Shown here in pieces: positions 1 through 64,000 of a stretch of DNA of 64,000 bases. Within the stretch, counting starts at the first letter, position 1, and each line of letters opens with the position of its first letter. Both the position numbers and the translations under genes were made by a program. Below the pieces are notes generated by a model. That model was not told the DNA's origin. It saw only the letters and a program-made list of their open reading frames with translations, and ran no database searches. The DNA is taken from NCBI RefSeq assembly GCF_056746865.1, contig NZ_CM163382.1, one strand, 5' to 3'.

Positions 1-233
1 TCCCGTTCAATGTCAGCTTCTGAAATGACTGCGTTGAGGTTATAGCGGTTGATAGCAATGGCAGTTCGCTCGTCCAACGGCGTGTTATCTGGTTTCCCTT
101 TCAGATTGCCGGTGATCAATAAATTCAGCGGCAATTCGATATCAGCAGCCACCCCATCAACTTTTGGTGTATACCGAACGCTGATTCTTTCTTTCGGCGC
201 GACACTGCCGCCATTGTTGTTCATTTTGCTCAT
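1..233 (-). CDS. tssB: T6SS sheath small subunit TssB, N-terminal part; gene runs off the window start
   Basis: Manual minus-strand translation from ATG at 233..231 gives MSKMNNNGGSVAPKERISVRYTPKVDGVAADIELPLNLLITGNLKGKPDNTPLDERTAIAINRYNLNAVISEADIER with no stop, the TssB/VipA-type N-terminus (GSVAPKERI...ELPL). Absent from the ORF track because it is cut by the window edge. Confidence 0.75.
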   Translation of the reverse strand, partial: MSKMNNNGGSVAPKERISVRYTPKVDGVAADIELPLNLLITGNLKGKPDNTPLDERTAIAINRYNLNAVISEADIER

Positions 234-359
234 AAAAATGTTCCCGTTCAGGCCATGAGCACAGCATTTTCGTACTGCATAAAAATACCGAAGATACCGT
301 TTCAGTGGCAGTTAGATAATGTAACCTTCCTTCTGTTGTGATCGGTATTCTACTCATGA

Positions 360-935
360 AATAAAATATTAAAAGAACTATTTATATTTTAGAAAGAGAT
401 GTATTCTTCCTTGCTAATATATTATAGTGAAATAAATTTTGGTATTTATAGACTTGATGAATATGATTTTACGGTCAATAAAATGCCATAATATATTGAT
501 TTATATGTATTTATTAAATTTATTAATAAGTTTTATGTATGGTTTTATCAATTGATTAATTGCTGGCAATACATCATAAGGAATTCCTTTAAGGAATGTC
601 TTAATTGCGTGCTGGAACGATGGCTGAGTAAGTGTCGTAATAATTTGTTTTTGACGCGGCTGTGGATTTTTATGGGGGGAAGGATACGTTATGGATAATT
701 CTGCTGTTGAAGTTGATATATTTTTAGCTTATGTGACCGTGTTCTGAAATTGACTAAAAATATATTTAAACACCATAAAAGAGTTTTTCAGTAGGTGCTA
801 ATTACGTGTGCCTGTAACTCGAATAAAGAAAAGGGTGTGGTTCCTGATGTGAGCCGCATCACACTCTAACCCGTCGGGGATTAACGACGGGTTGTTCGTA
901 AAACAGCAGTTGATAATTTCACAAGGAGTTCATAA
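360..935. promoter_or_regulatory. AT-rich divergent intergenic region between tssB and hcp; likely carries both promoters
   Basis: About 575 bp with no credible ORF and strongly AT-rich sequence between divergently oriented T6SS genes. Confidence 0.3.
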
Positions 936-1454
936 ATGCCAACCCCATGTTACATTTCAATTACAGGTCAGACCCAGGGGAACATCACTGCCGGTGCTTT
1001 CACCGCAGATTCTGTCGGCAATATCTACGTGCAGGGACACGAAGATGAAATGCTGGTGCAGGAGTTTCTGCATAACGTTACTGTTCCAACCGATCCACAG
1101 TCTGGTCAACCTTCCGGGCAGCGCGCGCACAAACCGTTCATTTTCACCGTGGCGCTGAACAAAGCCGTTCCGCTGCTGTACAACGCGCTGGCCTCCGGTG
1201 AAATGCTGCCGAAAGTGGAGCTGCACTGGTGGCGTACTTCAGTTGAAGGCAAGCAGGAGCACTACTTCACCACACGTCTTACTGACGCGACGATTGTGGA
1301 CATGAACCTGCACATGCCGCACTGCCAGGACCCTGCACAGCGTGAGTTTACGCAATTGCTCGCAGTATCACTGGCATACCGTAAGGTTGAGTGGGAGCAC
1401 ATCAAATCCGGTACTTCTGGTGCCGATGACTGGCGTGCACCGCTGGAAGCATAA
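936..1454 (+). CDS. hcp: T6SS tube protein Hcp (TssD)
   Basis: 172-aa ORF MPTPCYISITGQTQGNITAGAF...HWWRTSVEGKQEHYFTTRLTDATIVDM, a typical Hcp1-family sequence. Confidence 0.9.
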   Translation: MPTPCYISITGQTQGNITAGAFTADSVGNIYVQGHEDEMLVQEFLHNVTVPTDPQSGQPSGQRAHKPFIFTVALNKAVPLLYNALASGEMLPKVELHWWRTSVEGKQEHYFTTRLTDATIVDMNLHMPHCQDPAQREFTQLLAVSLAYRKVEWEHIKSGTSGADDWRAPLEA

Positions 1455-1462
1455 ATCTGAGT

Positions 1463-1500
1463 CAACAACATCCTGCCTTCGTGCAGGATGTTGTTTTTGT
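1463..1500 (+). terminator. Rho-independent terminator after hcp
   Basis: Inverted repeat caacaacatcctgc / gcaggatgttgtt followed by a T-run. Confidence 0.6.
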
Positions 1501-1674
1501 ACGTGTAAAAAATGAGTGTCAGTAAGGAGTTACGCTTTCATGAGGGAGATGGCGGATGCCGGAAACCCGGGCGGTAGCGTACCTGAAAATGTAAAGATGA
1601 GTGTAACGCTGCACTGGCACCCTTTGCTGCATGGTAAGAATCATTTGGTCCGTGAATAAATCAGGGAGGTCATT

Positions 1675-3633
1675 ATGTCCTTAAAAGGTCTGCGCTTTAC
1701 GCTGGAGATTGACGGCCAGGAGCCGGACACCTTTGCAGTGGTGCATTTCAGGTTAATCCAGAACCAGTCTTATCCGTTTGTGATGAGTGTGGATGTTGCC
1801 AGCGACTCTTTTATGCAGACGGCGGAGATGCTGCTGGAGAAGAAGGCGACGCTGACCATCTGGCAGGGCGTCATCCCGCTGCGTTATGTCACCGGCGTGG
1901 TGGCGGGTTTTGGCATGCAGGAGAACAATGGCTGGCAGATGCGTTATCACCTGCGTATTGAGCCGCCGTTATGGCGGTGCGGGCTGCGGCAGAACTTCCG
2001 TATCTTCCAGCAGCAGGATATCCGGACGATATCGGCCACGTTACTGAACGAGAACGGCGTCACGGAGTGGACACCGCTGTTTTATGAGGACCATCCGGCG
2101 CGGGAGTTCTGTGTCCAGTACGGGGAAAGCGACCTGGCGTTTCTGGCGCGGTTGTGGGCGGAGGAGGGAATTTTCTTCTTTGAGCGGTTTGCGGCGGACA
2201 GTCCGGAGCAGAAGCTGACGCTGTGCGACGATGTGGCGGGGCTGTCACAGGCGGGAGAGCTTCCGTTTAACCCGGACACATCGGCAGGAGCGGAGACAGA
2301 GTGTGTCAGTATGTTCCGTTATGAGGCGTATGTCCGCCCGTCGTCGGTGCAGAGCCAGGATTACACGTTTAAGGTGCCGGACTGGCCGGGGATGTATGAG
2401 CAGCAGGGTGAGAACCTGAACGGACAGCTGGAGCAGTATGAGATATTTGATTATCCGGGAAGGTTCAAGGATGAACAGCACGGCAAGGATTTCACGCTGT
2501 ACCAGATGGAGAGCCTGCGCAGTGATGCGGAAAAGGCCACAGGGCAGAGTAATTCACCGAAGCTGTGGCCGGGAACGCGGTTTACGCTGACGGGGCATCC
2601 GCAGAAGATGCTGAACCGTGAATGGCAGGTGGTACAGAGTATTCTGTCAGGGGACCAGCCGCAGGCGCTGCACGGCAGCCAGGGGAGAGGAACCACGCTG
2701 GGAAATCAGTTAGAGGTGATACCGGCGGACCGGACGTGGCGTCCACGGCTGCAAAGCAAACCGAAGGTGGACGGGCCACAGAGCGCCATTGTCACCGGTC
2801 CTGCGGGAGAGGAAATCTTCTGCGACGAACACGGACGTGTGCGAGTGCAGTTTCACTGGGACAGGTATAACCCGGCAACGGAGGCGAGTTCATGCTGGGT
2901 GAGGGTGTCGCAGGCGTGGGCGGGGCCGGGATTTGGTAACCTGGCGATACCGCGCATCGGCCAGGAAGTGATTGTAGACTTCCTGAACGGCGACCCGGAC
3001 CAGCCGATAATCATGGGGCGGACGTACCATGAGGACAACCGTTCGCCGGGGAGTCTGCCGGGGACGAAGACGCAGATGACGATACGGTCGAAGACCTATA
3101 AAGGAAGCGGCTTTAATGAACTGCGGTTCGAGGACGCGACGGACAAGGAAGAAATTTACCTGCACGCACAGAAAAATATGCAAGTCGTTGTGCTGAACAG
3201 CAAGGATAAGCGGGTCAACTATGACCGGACGGTCAGCATCGGGCATGATGAATCCCTGGTGGTGGCAAATGACCGGAAAGTGACGGTTGAAGGTAAACAG
3301 GACCATAAAACCACCAAAGACCATGTCAGCCTGACAGAGGGCAATCAGGGGCTGGAGGTGAAAGGCGATCTGGCACAGAAAATAAGCGGCGCGCTGGGTA
3401 TCAGCGTACAGGGCGATATTGTTTTACAGAGCGACAGCAAAATCAGTCTGCGGGTGGGCGGTTCATTTGTGGTGATCCATTCCGGCGGCGTGGATATTAA
3501 GGGCGCGAAAATCAATCTTAACGGCGGAGGCAGTCCGGGAGACGTGATCCTGCCGATGCGCCCGGTGATCCTGAAAGCCGCAGCCGGAAGCGGGACAATG
3601 TTTGTGGCGCACTGCCCGAAGGAGGATAAGTGA
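1675..3633 (+). CDS. vgrG: T6SS spike protein VgrG (TssI)
   Basis: 652-aa ORF with the VgrG N-terminal region (LRFTLEIDGQEPDTFAVVHF...) and gp27/gp5-like content; directly downstream of hcp. Confidence 0.9.
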   Translation: MSLKGLRFTLEIDGQEPDTFAVVHFRLIQNQSYPFVMSVDVASDSFMQTAEMLLEKKATLTIWQGVIPLRYVTGVVAGFGMQENNGWQMRYHLRIEPPLWRCGLRQNFRIFQQQDIRTISATLLNENGVTEWTPLFYEDHPAREFCVQYGESDLAFLARLWAEEGIFFFERFAADSPEQKLTLCDDVAGLSQAGELPFNPDTSAGAETECVSMFRYEAYVRPSSVQSQDYTFKVPDWPGMYEQQGENLNGQLEQYEIFDYPGRFKDEQHGKDFTLYQMESLRSDAEKATGQSNSPKLWPGTRFTLTGHPQKMLNREWQVVQSILSGDQPQALHGSQGRGTTLGNQLEVIPADRTWRPRLQSKPKVDGPQSAIVTGPAGEEIFCDEHGRVRVQFHWDRYNPATEASSCWVRVSQAWAGPGFGNLAIPRIGQEVIVDFLNGDPDQPIIMGRTYHEDNRSPGSLPGTKTQMTIRSKTYKGSGFNELRFEDATDKEEIYLHAQKNMQVVVLNSKDKRVNYDRTVSIGHDESLVVANDRKVTVEGKQDHKTTKDHVSLTEGNQGLEVKGDLAQKISGALGISVQGDIVLQSDSKISLRVGGSFVVIHSGGVDIKGAKINLNGGGSPGDVILPMRPVILKAAAGSGTMFVAHCPKEDK

Positions 3634-4472
3634 TGGAAACGGCACCCGTGCAGTACGCCATTGTGGATGGCGCTGTGGAGGAAGGATTGCTGGATTTTCT
3701 GAACGAGGTGAATCCCCCGCACTGTTGTCTGTATGCAGAACCCATACAACTGGATCTGGTCGCGCTAGCCCCCTATCTCGTGGAAGTCGTTCCGGAGGTT
3801 GAAGCATGGCTGAGTGTTAAGGCGTCGCCATGGGGAATATATCTGACTTCTGAGTCATCCATGCGTGAGCTACAGCAACACTTCAGACGTTATCTGTGGG
3901 TTAGGATCCCCGAACAGGAGAAACCTGTTCTCATGCGATTTTATGATCCCCGGAATATATGGGTATTAGTGGAAGTTCTGACCCCCCGCCAGCGTCTTTC
4001 TTTTATCAGTCCCGTCAGACAGCTAAGTACCCGTTATGGTGAAGAATGTCGTGAGGATAATTTTTCTTCCGTCCGTCCCGCAGAAACTATGAATATAAGG
4101 GCAGAACGGCCATCACAACTGACGCTGAGTTACAGACAATATAGCCAACTGGAACGAAAGGCACGGGATAATTATCTTGATATATTATCTGCATTTATCG
4201 AAGAAAATGTAGATAAAAACGGATGGGATGATTCATCAAAAGCTGAATCATCCCGAATTCTGGCAGAAGATTATTTCTCTTTTTGCCAGTCATTAAATAT
4301 AGCAGATGATCGTTCCGTCAGAACAATGACGCTTATATTACTGAAAAAAAATATAATCGATCTCAGATATATTCCGGATGACTGGTATGAACAACTCAGC
4401 AATCAGTCATACCCGGGACATATTCGGGTACATGAACTTGCACAACAGGAACTGGGATTTATCCCACAATAA
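3630..4472 (+). CDS. DUF4123-family T6SS effector adaptor (Tap/Tec-like)
   Basis: 280-aa ORF overlapping the vgrG stop (ATGA); N-terminal YAIVDGA motif typical of DUF4123 adaptors. Confidence 0.7.
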   Translation: MMETAPVQYAIVDGAVEEGLLDFLNEVNPPHCCLYAEPIQLDLVALAPYLVEVVPEVEAWLSVKASPWGIYLTSESSMRELQQHFRRYLWVRIPEQEKPVLMRFYDPRNIWVLVEVLTPRQRLSFISPVRQLSTRYGEECREDNFSSVRPAETMNIRAERPSQLTLSYRQYSQLERKARDNYLDILSAFIEENVDKNGWDDSSKAESSRILAEDYFSFCQSLNIADDRSVRTMTLILLKKNIIDLRYIPDDWYEQLSNQSYPGHIRVHELAQQELGFIPQ

Positions 4473-4493
4473 AAAGACAAACGGATAGATTAT

Positions 4494-6065
4494 ATGACAT
4501 CTCCATCTTCGACAGCCGGAAAGCCCTGTGTGGAATGCGGCATTCCTGATCCATGTATTTTTGATGTTATTAGTGATTTTCCAGAGGCCGGCGAGAAACA
4601 TTTCTGGTCAAAAGAAGGAGTGGCGCGTTTTAAGCTACTGGATGATGGTTCCGGATGTGATGGTATAATTACCATTACCTACCAGTGCGATAAAAGTGGA
4701 ACACATGAGGCATGGTTAGAGGAAGAATCAGAAAATAATCATAAGATACTGCAACCTTTCGGAATACCTAATAAGGTCACTTTGGATGATAACTTGTCTG
4801 AAGGTGAAATAATTGCTATGGGTACATTTCGAGTACCATGGGATTATTTGGGGGCAATATCCTCTCCACTTAAGAATCATTATGAACCTGCCCATTATTC
4901 AGTCAGAATTGACAGTTGTTACGAATGTGGCAATTATGTTGAAATTGATGTTTATCCTACAGTGGAAATTAGGTTTACTACAGGGTTCAGCTATGAGATT
5001 TCGTCATCAAAACAGACGAGAACAGTAAAAGAGCGGCGTGACGAAAGAATAAAAGCCAGGGACGCAATGGAGAACACCAAGCCCAGGGATAAAAATAAAC
5101 TCCGTAGCGGCTGGACAAATACCACTGCTGAGTTTGAGTGGATAAACAAGACTTCCCTGACTGTCGATTTTGGCGTAAAAATAGCTAATGTTGAACACAC
5201 AAGTGAATATGAAAAAGAGATAAAAAAACTTCGACAAACAAAGCAACTGGAACAGATAGGAAGAATTGACTCTCTGGTCAAGAATGTCAATAAATATTTT
5301 GCGCCAGATCCTGACAATAATAATGGTACGCGCAAATATGCATTGTTCAGTGCAAAAATAGAACCCGTTAAACTGGGTATATCGTATGCCTATCAATATA
5401 CCGATATCCAGGATGGCCCCTGTCATTTTTATGGTTTGTTTGGTGCCCCATTTTTTGAAGCGTCGTTCAGATTCGATATTATTTCATTTATATGTGCATA
5501 TTGTAAAGTCGAGTCATTGGTCAACAGATGTCGTGAATATCTCCGTAAAAACGGAGCCAGTGTTGAATGCTATATCGAGATTTCAGCGGAGATTAATCTT
5601 GATCTTGGCGCAGTATACGCTGAAAAGGATAAAAAATGGGAGTTTAATGTAAAGGAAAGTAACATCAAGCTCGGTTTAAAAGGTGTGGTGAGTGCGACGT
5701 TTGAGGCGAATGTTTTTGTTGTACAACTGACCGCCGAAGCGACTGCCTCTATAGAAGCGAAAGCTGGATTTGGATTTGATTCACATGATGACGGACTGGA
5801 CCTAGCATTATTTCATGACGGCATTAAAGGGAAGTTTGAATTTAAGATTGATGTGTCTCATGGTGAAGTTGATGAAAAAGGAAAGGGGAAGGAAAAGAGC
5901 GAAAAACCTGAGAAGAAAGATACCGTTGAGTGGCAGTTATGTGATCCTATGGAGGTAAAGGATTCACCATTACGGGTTAATTTATACGGTAAAGAACGCA
6001 CTGTGGAGAAAAAAGTAACACCGCCGAAGCCAGTGACAACGTGGACGATAGGTATGGATTATTAA
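4494..6065 (+). CDS. Candidate T6SS cargo effector, activity unknown
   Basis: 523-aa AT-rich ORF immediately after the DUF4123 adaptor. I recognise no catalytic motif; Lys/Glu-rich C-terminus. Confidence 0.45.
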   Translation: MTSPSSTAGKPCVECGIPDPCIFDVISDFPEAGEKHFWSKEGVARFKLLDDGSGCDGIITITYQCDKSGTHEAWLEEESENNHKILQPFGIPNKVTLDDNLSEGEIIAMGTFRVPWDYLGAISSPLKNHYEPAHYSVRIDSCYECGNYVEIDVYPTVEIRFTTGFSYEISSSKQTRTVKERRDERIKARDAMENTKPRDKNKLRSGWTNTTAEFEWINKTSLTVDFGVKIANVEHTSEYEKEIKKLRQTKQLEQIGRIDSLVKNVNKYFAPDPDNNNGTRKYALFSAKIEPVKLGISYAYQYTDIQDGPCHFYGLFGAPFFEASFRFDIISFICAYCKVESLVNRCREYLRKNGASVECYIEISAEINLDLGAVYAEKDKKWEFNVKESNIKLGLKGVVSATFEANVFVVQLTAEATASIEAKAGFGFDSHDDGLDLALFHDGIKGKFEFKIDVSHGEVDEKGKGKEKSEKPEKKDTVEWQLCDPMEVKDSPLRVNLYGKERTVEKKVTPPKPVTTWTIGMDY

Positions 6066-7216: not shown

Positions 7217-8379
7217 AATTTTTTGTCGCTGATATTCCAGACAGGAAAACAATATGCCTTTAGCTGCCAGATTAAACGACAAAGGTACCGGCACAGGGAA
7301 AGATCACGTAACGCTGCTTTTTTGTACTAAATAATTCGCATTTTATGTTTAAAATTTGAGATATTCCTCATTACCTGAGGCTGTTTTTTATTACTTATAC
7401 ATGATCAAATACTCCTTACATAATTAAGGGGAACAAAATGGAACTTAAAAATTGATGGAACATATTTCTGTTATTCCCGATTACAGACAAGCCTGGAAAG
7501 TGGAACATAAATTGTCGGATATTCTACTGTTGACTATTTGTGCCGTTATTTCGGGTGCAGAAGGTTGGGAAGATATAGAGGATTTTGGGGAAACACATCT
7601 CGATTTTTTAAAACAATACGGTGATTTTGAAAATGGTATTCCTGTTCACGATACCATCGCCAGAGTTGTATCCTGTATCAGTCCTGCAAAATTTCACGAG
7701 TGCTTTATTAACTGGATGCGAGATTGCCATACTTCAGATGATAAAGACGTCATCGCAATTGATGGAAAAACGCTCCGGCACTCTTATGACAAGAGTCGCC
7801 GCAGGGGAGCGATTCATGTCATTAGTGCGTTCTCAACAATGCACAGCCTGGTCATCGGACAGATCAAGACGGATGAGAAAACCAATGAGATTACAGCTAT
7901 CCCAGAACTTCTTAACATGCTGGATATTAAAGGAAAAATCATCACAACTGATGCGATGGGTTGCCAGAAAGATATTGCAGAGAAGATACAAAAACAGGGC
8001 GGTGATTATTTATTCGCTGTAAAAGGAAATCAGGGGCGGCTTAATAAAGCCTTTGAGGAAAAATTCCCACTGAAAGAATTAAATAATCCAGAGCATGACA
8101 GTTACGCAATGAGTGAAAAGAGTCACGGCAGAGAAGAAATCCGTCTTCATATTGTTTGCGATGTCCCTGATGAACTTATTGATTTCACGTTTGAATGGAA
8201 AGGACTGAAGAAATTATGCGTGGCAGTCTCCTTTCGGTCCATAATAGCAGAACAAAAGAAAGAGCCAGAAATGACGGTCAGATATTATATCAGTTCTGCT
8301 GATTTAACCGCAGAGAAGTTCGCCACAGCAATCCGAAACCACTGGCACGTGGAGAATAAGCTGCACTGGCGTCTGGACG

Positions 8380-10270
8380 GTGTGCCGCAGGAACACAAGA
8401 TAGCTGCATAAGGATACGCAGTTAGCTTTTGTATAAGCTCATAAAGAGATGGTGGAAGGCCCACCGGGATCGGCTGTCGGAAGCAGATTCCAAACCACTT
8501 CATGCTGCTGTGGTAAAGAGCCATGGTAGTGAGCGATGAAGTAAAGCGTGAGTGAAAACTCAGCAGGTAAGATACTCATGAGACGAGTGAACCCGAACCC
8601 ATGTTGACGCGTCGTAAACCAGAGACTGACATCAAAACCGAAGGGGCGTCCAGCCTTCGGGATAAGTCTGCGAGTGAATTCCGAATGCTGCGCAGACGGT
8701 GTCCGGCGTAAAGTGGGCGTGACGGAGTATCAGGCTCTTCCTGGGAACTGCGGGAACCTGTCGTTGTGATGATAAGGGAGAAATGCAAGTCACTGAATTG
8801 GCGAGCATGAAAGTACCGATGCACAGCACAGGGACGGAGCCGTTCGTAGTAGTGATGAAGCTTCTGTAATGGAGGTGGAGCGAAGGGGCGGCATCAGACA
8901 GTCTTTGGACAGTGTTCAACTGAACATGTTCAGGAGGAGACAATGACAAAGACAAAAGCGTTTAACATTGATAAGTCACTGGTGGTCAGCGCGTACAGGC
9001 GAGTGAAGACCAGTGCAGGCGCGGCGGGAATTGATAAGCAATCGCTGGCGGACTTTGATAAACGGTTAGTTGATAATCTGTACAAAATCTGGAACCGACT
9101 TTCTTCAGGAAGTTATTTCCCACCGGCAGTGAAAGCGGTGGCAATTCCGAAGAAATTGGGTGGAGAGAGAATTCTGGGTATCCCGACAGTCAGCGATCGT
9201 ATCGCGCAGACGGTGGTAAAACTGGCCTTTGAGCCACAGGTTGAGCCACATTTTCTGGCAGACTCTTACGGCTACAGACCGAATAAATCGGCACTGGATG
9301 CTATAGGGGTAACGCGTAAGCGTTGCTGGTATTACGACTGGGTACTGGAATTTGACATCAAAGGGCTGTTCGATAACATCCCGCACGAACTGATAATGAA
9401 AGCCGTGGACAAACACAATCCGGCCCGGTGGGTAAAATTGTATATACAGCGGTGGCTGACAGCGCCGATGGTGATGTCAGACGGAGAAGTCAGAGCACGA
9501 ACAATGGGAACGCCGCAGGGAGGTGTCATAAGTCCGTTGCTGGCAAACCTGTTCATGCATTATGTGTTTGATAAATGGCTGGCAAAATATTATCCGAAAG
9601 TGCCGTGGTATCGATATGCTGATGATGGCATTTTGCATTGTCACAGCGAAGCAGAAGCGACTGAAATGCGAGAAGTATTACGCAAAAGATTTAGCGAATG
9701 CGGACTGGAAATGCATCCGGAGAAAACGCGAGTTATCTACTGCAAAGATGGAAGCCGGAAGGGTGATTATGAACATACCATGTTCGACTTTCTGGGGTAC
9801 ACATTCAGGCGACGCGTAGTAAAGAACGTTAAGCGAAACAGTCTGTTTGTAAGTTTTACCCCCGCAGCGAGCAAATCAGCGCTAAAGGCAATGCGTCGGG
9901 AAATCAAAGCGACAGGGATAAGGAAAAGAGTGGATTTAAGCATTGAGCAGATAGCGAAATGGATAAATCCAAAACTGAATGGCTGGATAAATTATTACGG
10001 GCGATATACCTGTTCGGAATTATACAGCGTGTTCAGATATATCAATAAAGCACTGGTGAGGTGGGGGCGTAAGAAATATAAAATGCTCAGCCGATACAAG
10101 ACAAGAGCCTCAAAATTTCTGGAAGAAATGGCGAAGCGAAGTCCACAGTTGTTTGCCCACTGGCGTCTGAAGATGAGAGGCGGACTTGTTTGATGGGAGC
10201 GGTATGAGCCGAGAGGTTCACGTACCGTTCTGCGAGAGGCTGCGGGGGAGGTTCCTGCGGCCTACTCACC
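8380..10270 (+). mobile_element. Group II intron (bacterial, with RT/maturase ORF)
   Basis: Boundaries from aligning interrupted copy 1 to uninterrupted copy 2: shared …cgtctggacg | intron starts GTGTGCCG … ends …cctactcacc | tggtaatgaatg resumes. Domain V-like GAGCCG…CGTACCGTTC lies just after the RT stop. Confidence 0.7.
8943..10193 (+). CDS. Group II intron-encoded reverse transcriptase/maturase
   Basis: 416-aa ORF with RT motifs (…RYADDG… YADD box) and a maturase X-domain motif (NGWINYYG). Confidence 0.85.
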
Positions 10271-10493
10271 TGGTAATGAATGAAGACGACTGCAAAATAA
10301 GAAGAGGAAATGCAGCAGAATTATTTTCAGGGATACGGCACATCGCTATTAATATTTTGACGAATGATAAGGTATTCAAGGCAGGGTTAAGACGTAAGAT
10401 GCGAAAAGCAGCCATGGACAGAAACTATCTGGCGTCAGTCCTTGCGGGGTGCGGGCTTTCGTAATCTTTCCCTGGATGTGAAAAGCAGCTGCG

Positions 10494-11779
10494 GACAGGG
10501 AAAGATCATCAGAAGTACACTTTTTGTACTAAACAATTCGCATTTTATGTTTAAAAATTGAGATATTCCTCATTACCTGAAGCTGTTTTTTATTGCTTAT
10601 ACATGATCAAATACTCCTTACATAATTAAGGAGAACAAAATGGAACTTAAAAAATTGATGGAGCATATTTCTATTATCCCCGATTACAGACAAGCCTGGA
10701 AAGTGGAACATAAATTATCGGATATTCTACTGTTGACTATTTGTGCCGTTATTTCTGGTGCAGAAGGTTGGGAAGATATAGAGGATTTTGGGGAAACACA
10801 TCTCGATTTTTTGAAGCAATATGGTGATTTTGATAATGGTATTCCTGTTCACGATACCATTGCCAGAGTTGTATCCTGTATCAGTCCTGCAAAATTTCAC
10901 GAGTGCTTTATTAACTGGATGCGTGACTGCCATTCTTCAGATGATAAAGACGTCATTGCAATTGATGGAAAAACGCTCCGACACTCTTATGACAAGAGTC
11001 GCCGCAGGGGAGCGATTCATGTCATTAGTGCGTTCTCAACAATGCACAGCCTGGTCATCGGACAGATCAGGACGGATGAGAAATCTAATGAGATTACAGC
11101 TATCCCTGAACTTATTAACATGCTGGATATTAAAGGAAAAATCATCACAACTGATGCGATGGGTTGCCAGAAAGATATTGCAGAGAAGATACAAAAACAG
11201 GGAGGTGATTATTTATTCGCTGTAAAAGGAAACCAGGGGCGGCTAAATAAAGCCTTCGAGGAAAAATTTCTGCTGAAAGAATTAAATAATCCAGAGCATG
11301 ACAGTTACGCAATTAGTGAAAAGAGTCACGGCAGAGAAGAAATCCGTCTTCACATTGTTTGCGATGTCCCTGATGAACTTATTGATTTCACGTTTGAATG
11401 GAAAGGTCTGAAGAAATTATGCGTGGCAGTCTCCTTTCGGTCAATAATAGCAGAACAAAAGAAAGAGCCCGAAATGACGGTCAGATATTATATCAGTTCT
11501 GCTGATTTAACCGCAGAGAAGTTCGCCACAGCAATCCGAAACCACTGGCACGTGGAGAATAAGCTGCACTGGCGTCTGGACGTGGTAATGAATGAAGACG
11601 ACTGCAAAATAAGAAGAGGAAACGCAGCAGAATTATTTTCAGGGATACGGCACATTGCTATTAATATTTTGACGAATGATAAGGTATTCAAGGCAGGGTT
11701 AAGACGTAAGATGCGAAAAGCAGCCATGGACAGAAACTACCTGGCGTCAGTCCTTGCGGGGAGCGGGCTTTCGTAATCT
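10494..11779 (+). mobile_element. H-repeat (ISAs1-family) element copy 2, intact
   Basis: Left IR acagggaaagatca and right IR tcttgccctg; direct orientation, about 20 bp after copy 1. Confidence 0.75.
10640..11776 (+). CDS. H-repeat-associated ISAs1-family transposase
   Basis: 378-aa [35 protein letters not shown]… uninterrupted. Confidence 0.85.
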
Positions 11780-19927: not shown

Positions 19928-20686
19928 ATGTCCTTCATGTCTTCGTTCTTTCACGGCAGATTTCTGCATCCAGGCGTGTTTTCGTTATGCGTTTTGCTCC
20001 CTTTACTCGCCAGCGCCACCACATCACATATCTCTTTCAGCTACGCCGCCCGCCAGCGGATGCAAAACCGTGCGCGTTTATTAAAACAGTACCAAACCCA
20101 TCTGAAAAAACAGGCCAGCTATATTGTGGAAGGCAATGCCGAAAGCAGAAAGGCGCTGCGCCAGCACAACCGCGAACAGATAAAACAGCATCCAGAATGG
20201 TTTCCTGCGCCGCTCAAGGCGAGTGACAGACGCTGGCAGGCGCTGGCGGAGAACAACCATTTCTTAAGCAGCGACCATCTGCACAACATCACCGAAGTGG
20301 CGATTCACCGCCTGGAGCAGCAGCTTGGTAAGCCTTACGTCTGGGGCGGCACGCGGCCCGATCAAGGCTTCGACTGTAGCGGGTTGGTTTTTTATGCCTA
20401 CAACAAGATCCTCGAGGCGAAGCTCCCGCGCACGGCCAATGAGATGTATCACTACCATCGGGCAACGATTGTGGCGAATAACGACCTGCGCCGGGGAGAT
20501 TTGCTGTTTTTCCATATTCACAGCCGTGAGATTGCCGATCATATGGGCGTGTATCTGGGAGACGGTCAGTTTATCGAGTCGCCGCGCACCGGGGAAACCA
20601 TTCGGGTAAGTCGGTTAGCTGAACCTTTCTGGCAGGATCATTTTTTAGGCGCGCGCAGGATTTTGACGGAAGAGACGATTTTGTAG
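19928..20686 (+). CDS. yafL: NlpC/P60-family peptidoglycan endopeptidase YafL
   Basis: 252-aa ORF with signal peptide and NlpC/P60 signature (…GFDCSGLVFYAY…H…). Confidence 0.8.
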   Translation: MSFMSSFFHGRFLHPGVFSLCVLLPLLASATTSHISFSYAARQRMQNRARLLKQYQTHLKKQASYIVEGNAESRKALRQHNREQIKQHPEWFPAPLKASDRRWQALAENNHFLSSDHLHNITEVAIHRLEQQLGKPYVWGGTRPDQGFDCSGLVFYAYNKILEAKLPRTANEMYHYHRATIVANNDLRRGDLLFFHIHSREIADHMGVYLGDGQFIESPRTGETIRVSRLAEPFWQDHFLGARRILTEETIL

Positions 20687-20768
20687 GACGGATAAGGCGT
20701 TCACGCCGCATCCGGCAATAGTGCACCGATGCCTGATGCGACGCTGCCGCGTCTTATCATGCCTACGA
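20683..20768. repeat. REP element, overlaps the yafL stop codon
   Basis: gtaggacggataaggcgttcacgccgcatccggca… unit. Confidence 0.65.
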
Positions 20769-20862
20769 GTCTGCGAATTTTTTGCGAGCTGCTTTCCCGA
20801 TATAACACAACTTCATTGTCGACTTTTCCTTTTCTTCTTATCGTTGAGAAAAAGGAGTCGCC

Positions 20863-21360
20863 ATGTCTGAATATCGTCGTTATTACATCAAGGGGGGAAC
20901 ATGGTTTTTCACGGTAAATTTACGGAATCGTCGAAGCCAACTTTTGACCACCCAGTACCAGACACTCCGTAACGCCATTATTAAAGTTAAGCAGGCCAGA
21001 CCTTTTGAAATTAACGCCTGGGTAGTTTTGCCAGAGCATATGCACTGTATCTGGACATTACCCGAAAGTGATGATGATTTTTCCTCTCGCTGGCGGGAGA
21101 TTAAAAAGCAGTTCACCCATGCTTGCGGATTGAAAAATATCTGGCAACCGCGTTTTTGGGAGCATGCCATTCGCAATACAAAAGATTATCGCCATCATGT
21201 TGATTATATTTATATAAATCCAGTGAAACATGGCTGGGTAAAGCAGGTGAGTGATTGGCCATTCTCAACGTTCCATCGCGATGTAGCGCGAGGGTTATAT
21301 CCCATTGATTGGGCGGGAGACATAACGGATTTTAGTGCCGGGGAGCGTATTATTTTATAA
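20863..21360 (+). CDS. rayT: REP-associated tyrosine transposase RayT (YafM)
   Basis: 165-aa ORF MSEYRRYYIKGGTWFFTVNLRNRR…; IS200/IS605-like HuH fold; flanked by REP elements. Confidence 0.85.
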   Translation: MSEYRRYYIKGGTWFFTVNLRNRRSQLLTTQYQTLRNAIIKVKQARPFEINAWVVLPEHMHCIWTLPESDDDFSSRWREIKKQFTHACGLKNIWQPRFWEHAIRNTKDYRHHVDYIYINPVKHGWVKQVSDWPFSTFHRDVARGLYPIDWAGDITDFSAGERIIL

Positions 21361-21363
21361 TTG

Positions 21364-21510
21364 TGCGCGGATGCCTGATGCGACGCAGGCGCGTCTTATC
21401 ATGCCTACAAACTTGTGCCGGATCGGTGGGCCGGATAAGGCGTTCACACCGCATCCGGCAATTGTGCACCGGTGCCTGATGCGACGCTGGCGCGTCTTAT
21501 CATGCCTACA
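21364..21510. repeat. REP/BIME array, left part (interrupted by IS)
   Basis: REP units ending …cgtcttatcatgcctaca immediately before the IS left inverted repeat. Confidence 0.7.
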
Positions 21511-23050
<1,540 letters not shown>

Positions 23051-59869: not shown

Positions 59870-60733
59870 ATGCAAAAAATATTAGGTTTACTGGTGGTGC
59901 TCGGCTGCGTATTTGGCGGTTATTTTGAAGCGGGCGGGCAATTAGTGGCTATCTGGCAACCGGCGGAAATGATCATTATTTTGGGGGCGGGTTTCGGGGC
60001 AATGATTATTGGTAATCCGAAACATGTGCTGAAAGAGATTGCTCATCAAATTAAAGGCGTGATCAGTAAAAAACAGCTCGGGCCGGAGTTTCAGCGCCAG
60101 CTATTAATGTGTCTGTATGAGTTGCTCGAAATGGTGCAAAACGGTGGTCTGCGCATGTTGGATCAGCATATTGAGCAGCCGGAAGAGAGCACCATTTTCC
60201 AGAAATACCCGCTGGTGTTAACCCAGAAGCGGCTGGTGACCTTTATTGCCGATAACTTTCGCCTGATGGCGATGGGCAAAATCGACGCCCACGAACTGGA
60301 AGGGATTCTCGATCAGGAGCTGGACACCGCCGAAGAGTCGCTGCTAACGCCGTCACGCTCGCTGCAACGTACCGCCGAGGCGATGCCAGGGTTTGGCATT
60401 TGCGCGGCGGTGCTGGGCATCATCATCACCATGCAGTCGATTGATGGGTCTATCGCCCTGATTGGCCTGAAAGTGGCGGCAGCGCTGGTGGGGACGTTTT
60501 TAGGCGTCTTTATCTGCTACTGCCTGATGGACCCGCTCGCCAACGCCATGGAACAACAGGCGCGGGCGGAACATTCTTTGCTGGAATGCGTGCGCACCGT
60601 GCTGGTGGCGCAGGCAGGCGGCAAACCGACGCTGCTGGCAGTGGACGCCGGGCGTAAGCTGCTGCATCTGGCGTCCAAACCGACCTTCGCCAACCTCGAC
60701 GCGTGGGTGAATGCGATGCTGGAGCAAGAATAA
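59870..60733 (+). CDS. lafT: Flagellar motor stator protein MotA homolog
   Basis: 287-aa four-TM ORF with MotA-like content. Confidence 0.85.
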   Translation: MQKILGLLVVLGCVFGGYFEAGGQLVAIWQPAEMIIILGAGFGAMIIGNPKHVLKEIAHQIKGVISKKQLGPEFQRQLLMCLYELLEMVQNGGLRMLDQHIEQPEESTIFQKYPLVLTQKRLVTFIADNFRLMAMGKIDAHELEGILDQELDTAEESLLTPSRSLQRTAEAMPGFGICAAVLGIIITMQSIDGSIALIGLKVAAALVGTFLGVFICYCLMDPLANAMEQQARAEHSLLECVRTVLVAQAGGKPTLLAVDAGRKLLHLASKPTFANLDAWVNAMLEQE

Positions 60734-60735
60734 GC

Positions 60736-61659
60736 ATGAGAAAGACGGGCAACCGCCGCGAGCGTGGGGCAAAAACCACCATCGTCCGGCGGCAGATCAA
60801 AAAAAATCATGCCGGGCATCACGGCGGGGCGTGGAAGGTGGCGTTCGCCGACTTTACTTTGGCAATGATGGCGCTATTTATGACGCTGTGGATTGTCAAC
60901 AGCGTCAGTAAATCCGAGCGTGAAAGCATTATCGCCGCGCTGCACGGGCAGTCGATTTTTAACGGTGGCGGGCTGTCGCCGTTAAATAAAATCAGACCGT
61001 CTCATCCGCCAAAACCTGCCACCGTGGCGGTGCCGGAAGAGACGGAGAAAAAAGCGCATGACGTCAACGAGAAAACGGCGCTGCTGAAGAAGAAATCCGC
61101 TACTGAGCTTGGCGAGCTGGCAACCAGTATCAACACCATTGCCCGTGATGCGCATATGGAAGCGAATCTGGAGATGGAGATTGTTCCCCAGGGACTGCGC
61201 GTGCTGATTAAAGATGACCAGAACCGCAATATGTTTGAACGCGGCAGCGCGCAGATTATGCCGTTCTTTAAAACTTTGCTGGTGGAGTTAGCACCGGTTT
61301 TTGATTCGCTCGACAATAAGATCATCATCACCGGGCATACCGATGCGATGGCCTACAAAAACAATATCTACAACAACTGGAACCTTTCGGGCGATCGCGC
61401 GCTTTCAGCTCGTCGGGTGCTGGAAGAGGCCGGAATGCCGGAAGATAAAGTGATGCAGGTAAGTGCAATGGCGGACCAGATGCTGCTGGATGCCAAAAAT
61501 CCGCAAAGCGCGGGCAACCGGCGCATTGAGATTATGGTGCTGACCAAAAGTGCGTCCGATACGCTGTATCAATACTTTGGTCAGCATGGGGATAAAGTGG
61601 TGCAACCGCTGGTGCAAAAGCTGGATAAGCAGCAGGTGCTTTCGCAGCGAACGCGTTAA
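60736..61659 (+). CDS. lafU: Flagellar motor stator protein MotB homolog (OmpA-like C-terminus)
   Basis: Start MRKTGNRRER… within ORF 60703..61659; TM/plug region (…FADFTLAMMALFMTLWIV…) and peptidoglycan-binding motif (…ITGHTDA…NW.LS..RA…). Confidence 0.85.
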   Translation: MRKTGNRRERGAKTTIVRRQIKKNHAGHHGGAWKVAFADFTLAMMALFMTLWIVNSVSKSERESIIAALHGQSIFNGGGLSPLNKIRPSHPPKPATVAVPEETEKKAHDVNEKTALLKKKSATELGELATSINTIARDAHMEANLEMEIVPQGLRVLIKDDQNRNMFERGSAQIMPFFKTLLVELAPVFDSLDNKIIITGHTDAMAYKNNIYNNWNLSGDRALSARRVLEEAGMPEDKVMQVSAMADQMLLDAKNPQSAGNRRIEIMVLTKSASDTLYQYFGQHGDKVVQPLVQKLDKQQVLSQRTR

Positions 61660-61697
61660 ATGCTGAATCTTTATGCATTTCTCAAACTCTGAAATCA

Positions 61698-61713
61698 CTG
61701 TATACTTTACCAG
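61698..61713 (+). promoter_or_regulatory. LexA (SOS) box upstream of dinB
   Basis: CTGtatactttacCAG, CTG-N10-CAG with AT-rich centre, about 17 bp upstream of the dinB ATG. Confidence 0.7.
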
Positions 61714-61729
61714 TGTTGAGAGGTGAGCA

Positions 61730-62785
61730 ATGCGTAAAATCATTCATGTGGATATGGACTGCTTTTTCGCAGCGGTGGAGATGCGCGACAATCCTGCCCT
61801 GCGCGATATCCCTATTGCTATTGGCGGCAGCCGCGAACGTCGGGGGGTGATCAGCACCGCCAATTATCCCGCGCGTAAATTTGGCGTACGTAGCGCTATG
61901 CCGACAGGGATGGCGCTCAAATTTTGCCCACATCTCACGCTGCTTCCAGGGCGCTTTGACGCCTACAAAGAAGCCTCAAATCATATCCGCGAAATTTTCT
62001 CGCGCTATACCTCGCGCATTGAACCGTTATCACTGGATGAAGCCTATCTCGACGTCACCGATAGTGTGCATTGCCACGGTTCTGCGACCCTCATCGCCCA
62101 GGAAATCCGCCAGACAATCTTCAACGAGCTGCAACTGACGGCGTCTGCGGGCGTTGCGCCGGTAAAGTTTCTCGCTAAAATCGCTTCCGACATGAATAAA
62201 CCCAACGGTCAGTTTGTGATTACTCCGGCAGAAGTTCCGGCATTTCTGCAAACCTTACCGCTGGCAAAAATTCCTGGCGTCGGCAAAGTCTCGGCGGCAA
62301 AACTGGAAGCGATGGGGCTGCGGACCTGCGGTGATGTGCAAAAGTGTGATCTGGTGACTCTGCTCAAACGTTTTGGCAAATTTGGCCGCATTTTGTGGGA
62401 GCGTAGTCAGGGGATTGACGAGCGCGACGTTAACAGCGAACGGTTGCGAAAATCCGTCGGCGTGGAACGCACGATGGCGGAAGATATTCATCACTGGTCT
62501 GAATGTGAAGCGATTATCGAGCGGCTGTACCCGGAACTTGAACGCCGTCTGGCAAAGGTAAAACCTGATTTACTGATTGCCCGTCAGGGAGTGAAATTAA
62601 AGTTCGACGATTTCCAGCAAACCACTCAGGAGCACGTCTGGCCACGGCTGAATAAAGCTGATCTAATCGCCACCGCGCGTAAAACCTGGGATGAACGCCG
62701 CGGCGGGCGCGGTGTGCGACTGGTGGGGCTGCATGTGACGTTGCTTGACCCTCAAATGGAAAGACAACTGGTGCTGGGATTATGA
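61730..62785 (+). CDS. dinB: DNA polymerase IV
   Basis: 351-aa [36 protein letters not shown]…, Y-family polymerase. Confidence 0.95.
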
Positions 62786-62836
62786 TGTATACTATTATGT
62801 CTATTCTGGTGTGCATTATTATGAGGGGATCACTGT

Positions 62837-63130
62837 ATGCATCGAATTCTTGCGGAAAAATCGGTCAATATCACTGAGTTACGTAAAAACCCAGCTAAAT
62901 ACTTTATTGATCAACCAGTTGCGGTTCTTTCTAATAATCGCCCCGCAGGATATCTCTTAAGTGCCAGCGCATTCGAAGCGTTAATGGACATGCTTGCTGA
63001 ACAAGAGGAGAAAAAGCCTATAAAGGCGCGCTTCCGTCCAAGTGCTGCAAGATTAGAGGAAATTACACGCCGAGCTGAAAAATATCTTAATGATATGACG
63101 GATGATGATTTCAATGACTTTAAGGAATAA
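62837..63130 (+). CDS. yafN: YafN antitoxin (Phd/YefM-like)
   Basis: 97-aa ORF downstream of dinB; size and position as K-12 YafN. Confidence 0.85.
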   Translation: MHRILAEKSVNITELRKNPAKYFIDQPVAVLSNNRPAGYLLSASAFEALMDMLAEQEEKKPIKARFRPSAARLEEITRRAEKYLNDMTDDDFNDFKE

Positions 63131-63132
63131 GG

Positions 63133-63531
63133 ATGCGGGTATTCAAAACAAAACTCATTCGCCTGCAACTTACAGCAGAGGAACTTGAAGCGTTAACGGC
63201 GGATTTTATTTCCTATAAGCGTGACGGTGTTTTGCCAGATATATTTGGTCGCGATGCACTCTACGACGACTCGTTTACCTGGCCATTAATCAAATTTGAG
63301 CGAGTTGCTCATATTCATCTGGCAAATTAGAATAATCCATTTCCGCCACAGTTGCGCCAATTCAGCAGAACGAATGACGAAGCGCATTTGGTATATTGTC
63401 AGGGTGCGTTTGATGAGCAAGCATGGTTGCTCATTGCCATTCTGAAACCTGAACCTCATAAACTGGCTCGAGATAACAACCAAATGCATAAAATTGGGAA
63501 AATGGCAGAAGCGTTTCGCATGCGTTTTTGA
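63133..63531 (+). pseudogene. yafO: yafO toxin gene interrupted by an in-frame amber codon
   Basis: 65 codons, then TAG at 63328..63330, then 66 further sense codons in the same frame to TGA at 63529..63531; total 132 codons, the size of K-12 YafO. Confidence 0.75.
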
Positions 63532-63540
63532 ATTTATATT

Positions 63541-63993
63541 ATGAATAACATACATATAAGAAACTATCAGCCTGGCGATTTTCAGCAACTATGCGCTATT
63601 TTCCTTCGAGCGGTTACGATGACTGCCAGTCAGCACTATTCTCCACAGCAAATTGCCGCCTGGGCGCAGATTGACGAATCTCGCTGGAAAGATAAACTCG
63701 CGAAATCACAAGTGCGGGTTGCAGTCATTAATGCACAACCGGTTGGTTTTATTTCCCGCATTGAACATTATATCGATATGTTATTTGTTGACCCTGAATA
63801 CACCCGCCGTGGGGTTGCCAGCGCTTTGTTAAAACCTTTGATTAAGTCTGAATCCGAACTTACGGTGGACGCCAGCATAACCGCAAAGCCCTTTTTTGAA
63901 CGTTATGGTTTTCAGACAGTTAAGCAGCAGTGCGTTGAATGCCGGGGAGCGTGGTTTACTAATTTTTATATGCGATATAAACCGCAACATTAA
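63541..63993 (+). CDS. yafP: GNAT-family N-acetyltransferase YafP
   Basis: 150-aa ORF with GNAT-like core (…RRGVASALL…). Confidence 0.85.
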   Translation: MNNIHIRNYQPGDFQQLCAIFLRAVTMTASQHYSPQQIAAWAQIDESRWKDKLAKSQVRVAVINAQPVGFISRIEHYIDMLFVDPEYTRRGVASALLKPLIKSESELTVDASITAKPFFERYGFQTVKQQCVECRGAWFTNFYMRYKPQH

Positions 63994-64000
63994 ATCCAGC

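Follow-up and report, generated by a model that had tools for sequence, protein, structure and literature searches.

The yafO gene in the dinB operon of the 64-kb stretch of DNA analysed here (64,000 nucleotides, hereafter the window) carries an in-frame amber codon, while the neighbouring yafN antitoxin gene is intact. This raises the question of whether the locus still encodes a toxin, whether the stop codon is genuine, and which genomes share it. Work by Singletary in 2009, and by Zhang, Yamaguchi and Inouye in 2009, reportedly dealt with K-12 YafN–YafO as a type II toxin–antitoxin (TA) module of the dinB operon. YafO acts as an mRNA interferase that depends on the ribosome, and YafN serves as the cognate antitoxin (PMC2814082; PMC7781912); the second of these sources summarises the K-12 YafO activity reported by Zhang 2009. 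Our reading, to which we give a probability of about 0.93, is that the TAG represents a real, lineage-fixed loss-of-function allele of yafO, with YafN left as an orphan antitoxin.

Reading frame of yafO

The yafO locus comprises the following features:

63133..63531, + strand: yafO pseudogene, full-length remnant of a 132-codon toxin gene (394/399 bases equal to K-12 yafO)
63133..63330, + strand: 65-aa N-terminal YafO fragment, the sole translatable product, ending at the amber codon (ORF and translation)
63328..63330, + strand: premature amber TAG at yafO codon 66, with the causal SNP, G→T, at 63328
63331..63531, + strand: untranslated 3′ part of yafO (codons 67-132 and TGA), frame still open (translation)

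The frame runs through 65 sense codons to the TAG at 63328-63330 and continues through 66 further sense codons to a TGA, which amounts to 132 codon positions plus the stop. In MG1655, yafO (b0233) encodes 132 aa and has GAG (Glu66) at codon 66. The window and the K-12-type allele differ at 5/399 bases (98.7% DNA identity), corresponding to three synonymous changes, the substitution D19E, and the stop-creating G→T at 63328. The earlier note had described the same succession of 65 codons, TAG, 66 codons and TGA at the size of K-12 YafO, had given GAG (Glu) for this codon in K-12, and had regarded the change as a single-nucleotide inactivation; retranslation agrees with the first statement, the MG1655 gene bears out the second, and in the alignment to K-12 yafO a lone G→T makes the TAG. 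Downstream of the stop just one difference from K-12 was found, and it is synonymous. Together with the complete identity, over 2,334 nt, of the window sequence and those of five carriers sampled from Australia, the USA, Russia, and Japan, this indicates that the TAG allele is young, which explains why the frame past the stop has remained open over such a length.

Loss of the toxin domain

The Pfam domain YafO_toxin (PF13957) spans residues 27-130 of 132, and the 65-aa fragment keeps residues 27-65 only, so that about 60% of the domain is lost through the stop. Aligning 20 full-length homologs gave 28 invariant columns, and 15 of these lie 3′ of codon 66 (Q76, T80, H85, L86, Y88, C89, L99, L100, P106, H109, A112, M118, A125, F128, and R129). 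The NCBIfam equivalog NF007377 matches both halves of the gene, with 113 bits for the N-terminal fragment (model positions 2-66) and 119 bits for the C-terminal fragment (68-132), both below the cut-off of 153 bits. Homology to yafO is thus present across the full gene length, and an uninterrupted ORF with a complete domain passing 153 bits is absent: the locus is a yafO pseudogene, not a YafO-encoding gene.

No solved structure of YafO was found in the PDB by sequence. An AlphaFold2 model built from the 20-sequence alignment is poor (pLDDT 51); in it, every predicted strand (78-104), like the C-terminal helices, is located 3′ of the stop. The residue at the stop itself falls within a variable patch, with E, V, A, D, G, and T among the homologs of the same alignment, which fits the Glu/Val polymorphism at this position within E. 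coli. The sole in-frame restart codon before M118 is a TTG at 63352, and no Shine-Dalgarno sequence was detected upstream of it (AATAATCCATTTCCGCCACAG). To judge from what the truncation removes, toxin activity of YafO is predicted to be lost in the TAG allele.

The dinB operon around the pseudogene

The remaining parts of the operon are listed below:

61698..61713, + strand: dinB-promoter LexA (SOS) box, CTGTATACTTTACCAG (fits CTG-N10-CAG, same sequence as in K-12)
61730..62785, + strand: dinB, DNA polymerase IV, intact, 351 aa (NF002677, 545 bits vs cut-off 256)
62786..62836, + strand: dinB–yafN intergenic region with the YafN-autoregulated yafNO promoter, presumed active here (similarity to K-12)
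62837..63130, + strand: yafN antitoxin, intact, 97 aa, now orphan (NF007300 equivalog, 196.7 bits vs 99)
63541..63993, + strand: yafP GNAT acetyltransferase, intact, 150 aa (NF007338, 323.5 bits vs 146)

Both marks of an SOS-regulated dinB operon, namely the LexA box and the gene order dinB–yafN–yafO–yafP, are present, as had been proposed from the sequence. Compared with K-12, dinB shows 41 synonymous and 3 nonsynonymous differences. SOS induction of yafNO starts from the dinB promoter, and a further yafNO promoter, autoregulated by YafN, was mapped in K-12 in the dinB–yafN intergenic region (PMC2814082); the stretch 62783-62839, which holds this region, matches K-12 at 55/57 bases. The antitoxin gene lies 5′ of the toxin gene in the same operon, and its stop (63128-63130) precedes the yafO ATG (63133) by 2 nt. 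The view that yafN is intact also held, since its 97-aa product exceeds the NCBIfam cut-off (196.7 bits vs 99). YafN differs from the K-12 protein by one amino acid, Q82K, and the protein WP_000554757.1 is common to all TAG carriers examined. A functional type II TA system has both partners intact; at this locus only the antitoxin is whole, the toxin being cut short.

Downstream, yafP starts 9 nt past the yafO stop, and no evident Shine-Dalgarno sequence precedes it. With translation terminating 210 nt upstream, translation of yafP may therefore be uncoupled from that of yafO. The untranslated 210-nt stretch has a C/G ratio of 0.91, with 1.58 for its best 78-nt segment; this composition shows no strong C-over-G bias and speaks neither for nor against Rho-dependent polarity. 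Rfam gave no matches between 61,000 and 64,000, and a scan of the locus for promoters and terminators yielded nothing past consensus-level matches.

In pairwise comparisons, yafP shows nonsynonymous to synonymous ratios of 7:9, 9:6, and 5:10, vs 3:41 for the adjoining dinB. We considered whether selection on yafP was relaxed in the TAG clade in particular, and rejected this, as the share of nonsynonymous changes is high everywhere, including between K-12 and a strain with intact yafO.

Possible suppression, readthrough and split products

The amber codon might be decoded if a suppressor tRNA were present or if near-cognate tRNAs read it at a basal level, so that some full-length YafO would be made and an attenuated but functional TA pair would persist. 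We regard this as very unlikely. In its favour, residue 66 tolerates substitution (it is variable among homologs, and Glu or Val in E. coli), so that an inserted residue would probably be accepted; the stop is directly followed by A, and TAGA is a relatively weak termination context in E. coli; and the frame 3′ of the stop, as well as yafN, is wholly intact. Against it, no tRNA gene lies within the 64-kb window, and wild-type E. coli generally reads through UAG at a basal rate far below a few per cent. Traces of YafO produced in this way would be neutralised by the intact YafN, and the intact 3′ frame is fully accounted for by the youth of the allele. An intact 3′ frame is likewise what continued use would predict, though too little time has passed in this clade for decay to become visible.

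A supE-type suppressor, for which the earlier note had proposed a search, is unlikely to judge from a close relative. The genes glnX and glnV [tRNA-Gln(CUG)] of the near-identical TAG carrier 118UI both have wild-type CTG anticodons; among the suppressor loci, which also include serU, tyrT, leuX, lysT, and trpT, these two were covered, and in 118UI. When complete genomes were searched with a 41-mer of the supE-type tRNA-Gln with CUA anticodon, 157 genomes matched. The 60 matches listed were all K-12 laboratory derivatives, such as C600, DH5α, DH1, and J53; the recovery of laboratory strains (C600, DH5α, and DH1, for example), used as positive control, validates the test, and no natural carrier was found among these 60.

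A more far-reaching form of the readthrough idea, which we consider distinctly unlikely as a whole, would be a dimmed toxin. Readthrough of UAG-A at the tolerant residue 66 would yield trace YafO buffered by YafN, and the pandemic lineage ST69 would thereby keep a highly attenuated, possibly stress-conditional, SOS-linked mRNA interferase; the early stop would also uncouple translation of yafP and so alter the response of the lineage to nitroaromatic genotoxins.

The chance is slimmer again that yafO is split and not dead, with the 65-aa fragment and a 59-aa fragment initiated at TTG 63352 both being made, and either reassembling into an active toxin or serving new, separate roles, such as partner of YafN or co-repressor. 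Both half-ORFs exist and appear as separate proteins in GenBank (Eco118UI_01530 and 01535), and an automated survey lists YafO-domain 'antitoxin partners' in ST69 only (PMC10790755), which are probably the YafO halves. However, the TTG is the one described above as lacking a Shine-Dalgarno sequence, restart there would drop residues 66-73, neither fragment attains the family cut-off, and the call of the survey is a software inference.

Distribution and lineage of the TAG allele

Alleles of codon 66 were counted among 5,426 complete E. coli genomes by megablast, using 41-mers centred on the variant base; since megablast requires an exact word of 28 bases, only the matching allele can seed a 41-mer match. 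GTG (Val) was found in 1,834 genomes, GAG in 857, and TAG in 140, and the three alleles together account for 2,831 of the 2,843 yafO-bearing genomes. The Glu66 of K-12 is thus a minority sense allele in E. coli, GTG being commoner. In all 140 genomes the TAG 41-mer is chromosomal and single copy. Although a single-base difference is the commonest type of assembly error, we leave practically no room for the true codon being GAG, and the caveat of a sequencing error raised earlier was rejected on population evidence, as the same base was read in 140 complete genomes, each sequenced on its own, with several continents, hosts, and platforms represented, the exact truncated YafO peptide occurs on at least 1,000 public contigs, and the window matches dozens of genomes at 100% over 25 kb.

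Many complete genomes, that of the enteroaggregative E. coli (EAEC) strain 042 among them, contain the 399-bp yafO sequence at 100% identity. In every carrier examined (042, M00057, M12, MS1050, Yu5, AST262, EcPF15, and 'ST69'), RefSeq labels the gene as a pseudogene with an internal stop. The TAG allele is therefore already on record as a pseudogene, and the case is one of ordinary TA decay; a full-text literature search retrieved no paper describing this nonsense allele. At the protein level, the 59-aa TTG-initiated C-terminal ORF was found on 992 contigs, next to the at least 1,000 that carry the exact 65-aa peptide. The two halves (63133-63330 and 63352-63531) are named in GenBank as separate hypothetical proteins, Eco118UI_01530 and 01535.

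Identity of at least 99% over the 2.3-kb dinB–yafP segment was found in exactly 140 records, and among the evenly sampled matches listed, the next haplotype of this segment is 97.4% identical. After reversion of the stop in silico (T→G), no genome matched at 100%, and the best matches were the TAG carriers themselves, at 99.7%. The stop is thus present in every genome of this haplotype, and no genome with its intact progenitor was found.

Carriers of the allele include ST69, ST394, and EAEC 042. Strain WP7-S17-ESBL-01 matches the window at 100% over 25 kb; this strain and WP8-S17-ESBL-12 belong to ST69 (PMC9598598), and EcPF15 belongs to ST394 (PMC7427188). The genome of the uropathogenic strain 118UI is collinear with the window, with 19 mismatches in the first 50 kb, nearly all in IS copies, and 100% identity in the last 25 kb. 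Strain 042 differs from the window at 9 sites of dinB–yafP, with nearly every one of these in the 5′ half of dinB. In a wider comparison, 68 differences (about 3%) fall within 60280-62182 (motA–lafU and the 5′ part of dinB), vs 1 within 62183-64000, the part with the TAG. The relationship to 042 is mosaic, and this distribution of differences suggests a recombination breakpoint inside dinB.

The history that best explains these data begins with a G→T transversion at 63328, which turned codon 66 from GAG (Glu) into amber TAG, so that translation ends after 65 residues. The change probably had a single origin in phylogroup-D E. coli, in a cell with a distinctive dinB–yafP haplotype, and it is fixed in all bearers of that haplotype, namely ST69 sublineages, ST394, and EAEC 042. 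YafN, as antitoxin and autorepressor, has stayed intact together with DinB, YafP, and the SOS box. The operon would still respond to SOS as a dinB–yafP unit, in the middle of which sit an orphan antitoxin and an inactive toxin gene. Loss of the toxin first follows the order expected for the decay of TA modules, because toxin loss is harmless and antitoxin-first loss is lethal. The loss of YafO was presumably neutral or beneficial.

Other features of the window

The window starts with the end of a type VI secretion cluster (1-3576; tssB and hcp); vgrG is annotated as truncated, with its C-terminus missing, in 118UI. A group II intron (7455-10464) lies in an ISAs1-family transposase gene, and includes Rfam matches to domains D1-D4 (8451-8568), an ltrA reverse transcriptase/maturase (8943-10193), and domain V/VI (10195-10270). 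A second ISEc1 copy occupies 10640-11776, and most mismatches between the window and 118UI are in these IS copies. An array of REP-derived naRNA4 Rfam matches flanks rayT (20686-22969). An ISEc31 insertion (21519-22732), holding a match to the isrC sRNA (22578-22700), is located directly upstream of the Flag-2 cluster.

The window possesses an intact Flag-2 lateral-flagellar cluster of about 36 kb, from flhA to lafU (23060-61659), with junction points at about 24763 and about 60894. Other TAG carriers, namely EcPF15 (ST394), the O15:H18 strain 'ST69', M00057, M12, MS1050, Yu5, and AST262, possess the exact K-12-type deletion junction, AAAGTTGAT joined to TGTCAACAGC, and the flanks of this junction are 99.6-99.9% identical to the window, vs about 96% to K-12. 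Since TAG carriers have the K-12-type junction, Flag-2 varies in presence within ST69 itself; such variation would come from recombination or from the same deletion having occurred more than once.

In all TAG carriers examined, rtcB and prfH, encoding an RNA ligase and release factor H, are intact 3′ of yafP (in 042 at positions 4052-5802 of its locus sequence L001, past the 3′ end of the window). Both genes are truncated pseudogenes in K-12-type genomes (L002).

Relation to known systems

The locus is similar to the K-12 YafN–YafO module (Christensen-Dalsgaard 2010, PMC2814082) in its position, gene order, spacing, LexA box, and yafN promoter region. It differs from that module in the stop at codon 66, which cuts the toxin to 65 aa, so that the antitoxin half alone is intact.

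The dispensability and repeated loss of yafNO are documented: Gutierrez et al. 2011 (PMC3105422) described its absence from 40-50% of E. coli, through ATGA–ATGA recombination and in at least 3 independent losses. Among the complete E. coli genomes, yafO is absent from 2,583/5,426 (about 48%). In strain W, dinB and yafP overlap in ATGA to form a two-gene operon (positions 2583-2586 of L003). Both ATGA motifs of the known deletion are present in the window, at 62782-62785 and 63541-63544. Similar to the two-gene dinB–yafP operon (PMC3105422), which is common and lineage-structured, the TAG allele would leave the cell without functional YafO and keeps dinB and yafP. In contrast to that operon, the module is physically kept here, the toxin is point-mutated and YafN is encoded, and yafP is no longer directly 3′ of a translated ORF.

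Orphan antitoxins abound in E. coli (PMC10790755), and pseudogenised toxins are frequent there as well (PMC7232551, PMC10790755); strain CFT073, for instance, has a parE-1 pseudogene and has kept higA (PMC7232551). As in these cases, the toxin was lost or degraded, the cognate antitoxin persists, and the loss is specific to a lineage. However, yafO stands here at the earliest stage of decay, with one SNP and no further lesions.

The survey mentioned above reported 'YafO (76P) and (77P) novel antitoxins exclusive to ST69' (PMC10790755), and these YafO-domain 'novel antitoxins' are probably the split yafO miscalled. The case calls for caution in automated TA surveys, as many GenBank records list the split yafO under two 'proteins'.

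The TAG allele would represent a second, point-mutational route to the common yafNO- or toxin-less state of E. coli. ST69, an extraintestinal pathogenic (ExPEC) lineage, ST394, and the prototype EAEC strain 042 would thus be without functional YafO while keeping YafN, which is relevant to studies of SOS-linked TA modules, of persistence, and of YafN/YafO.
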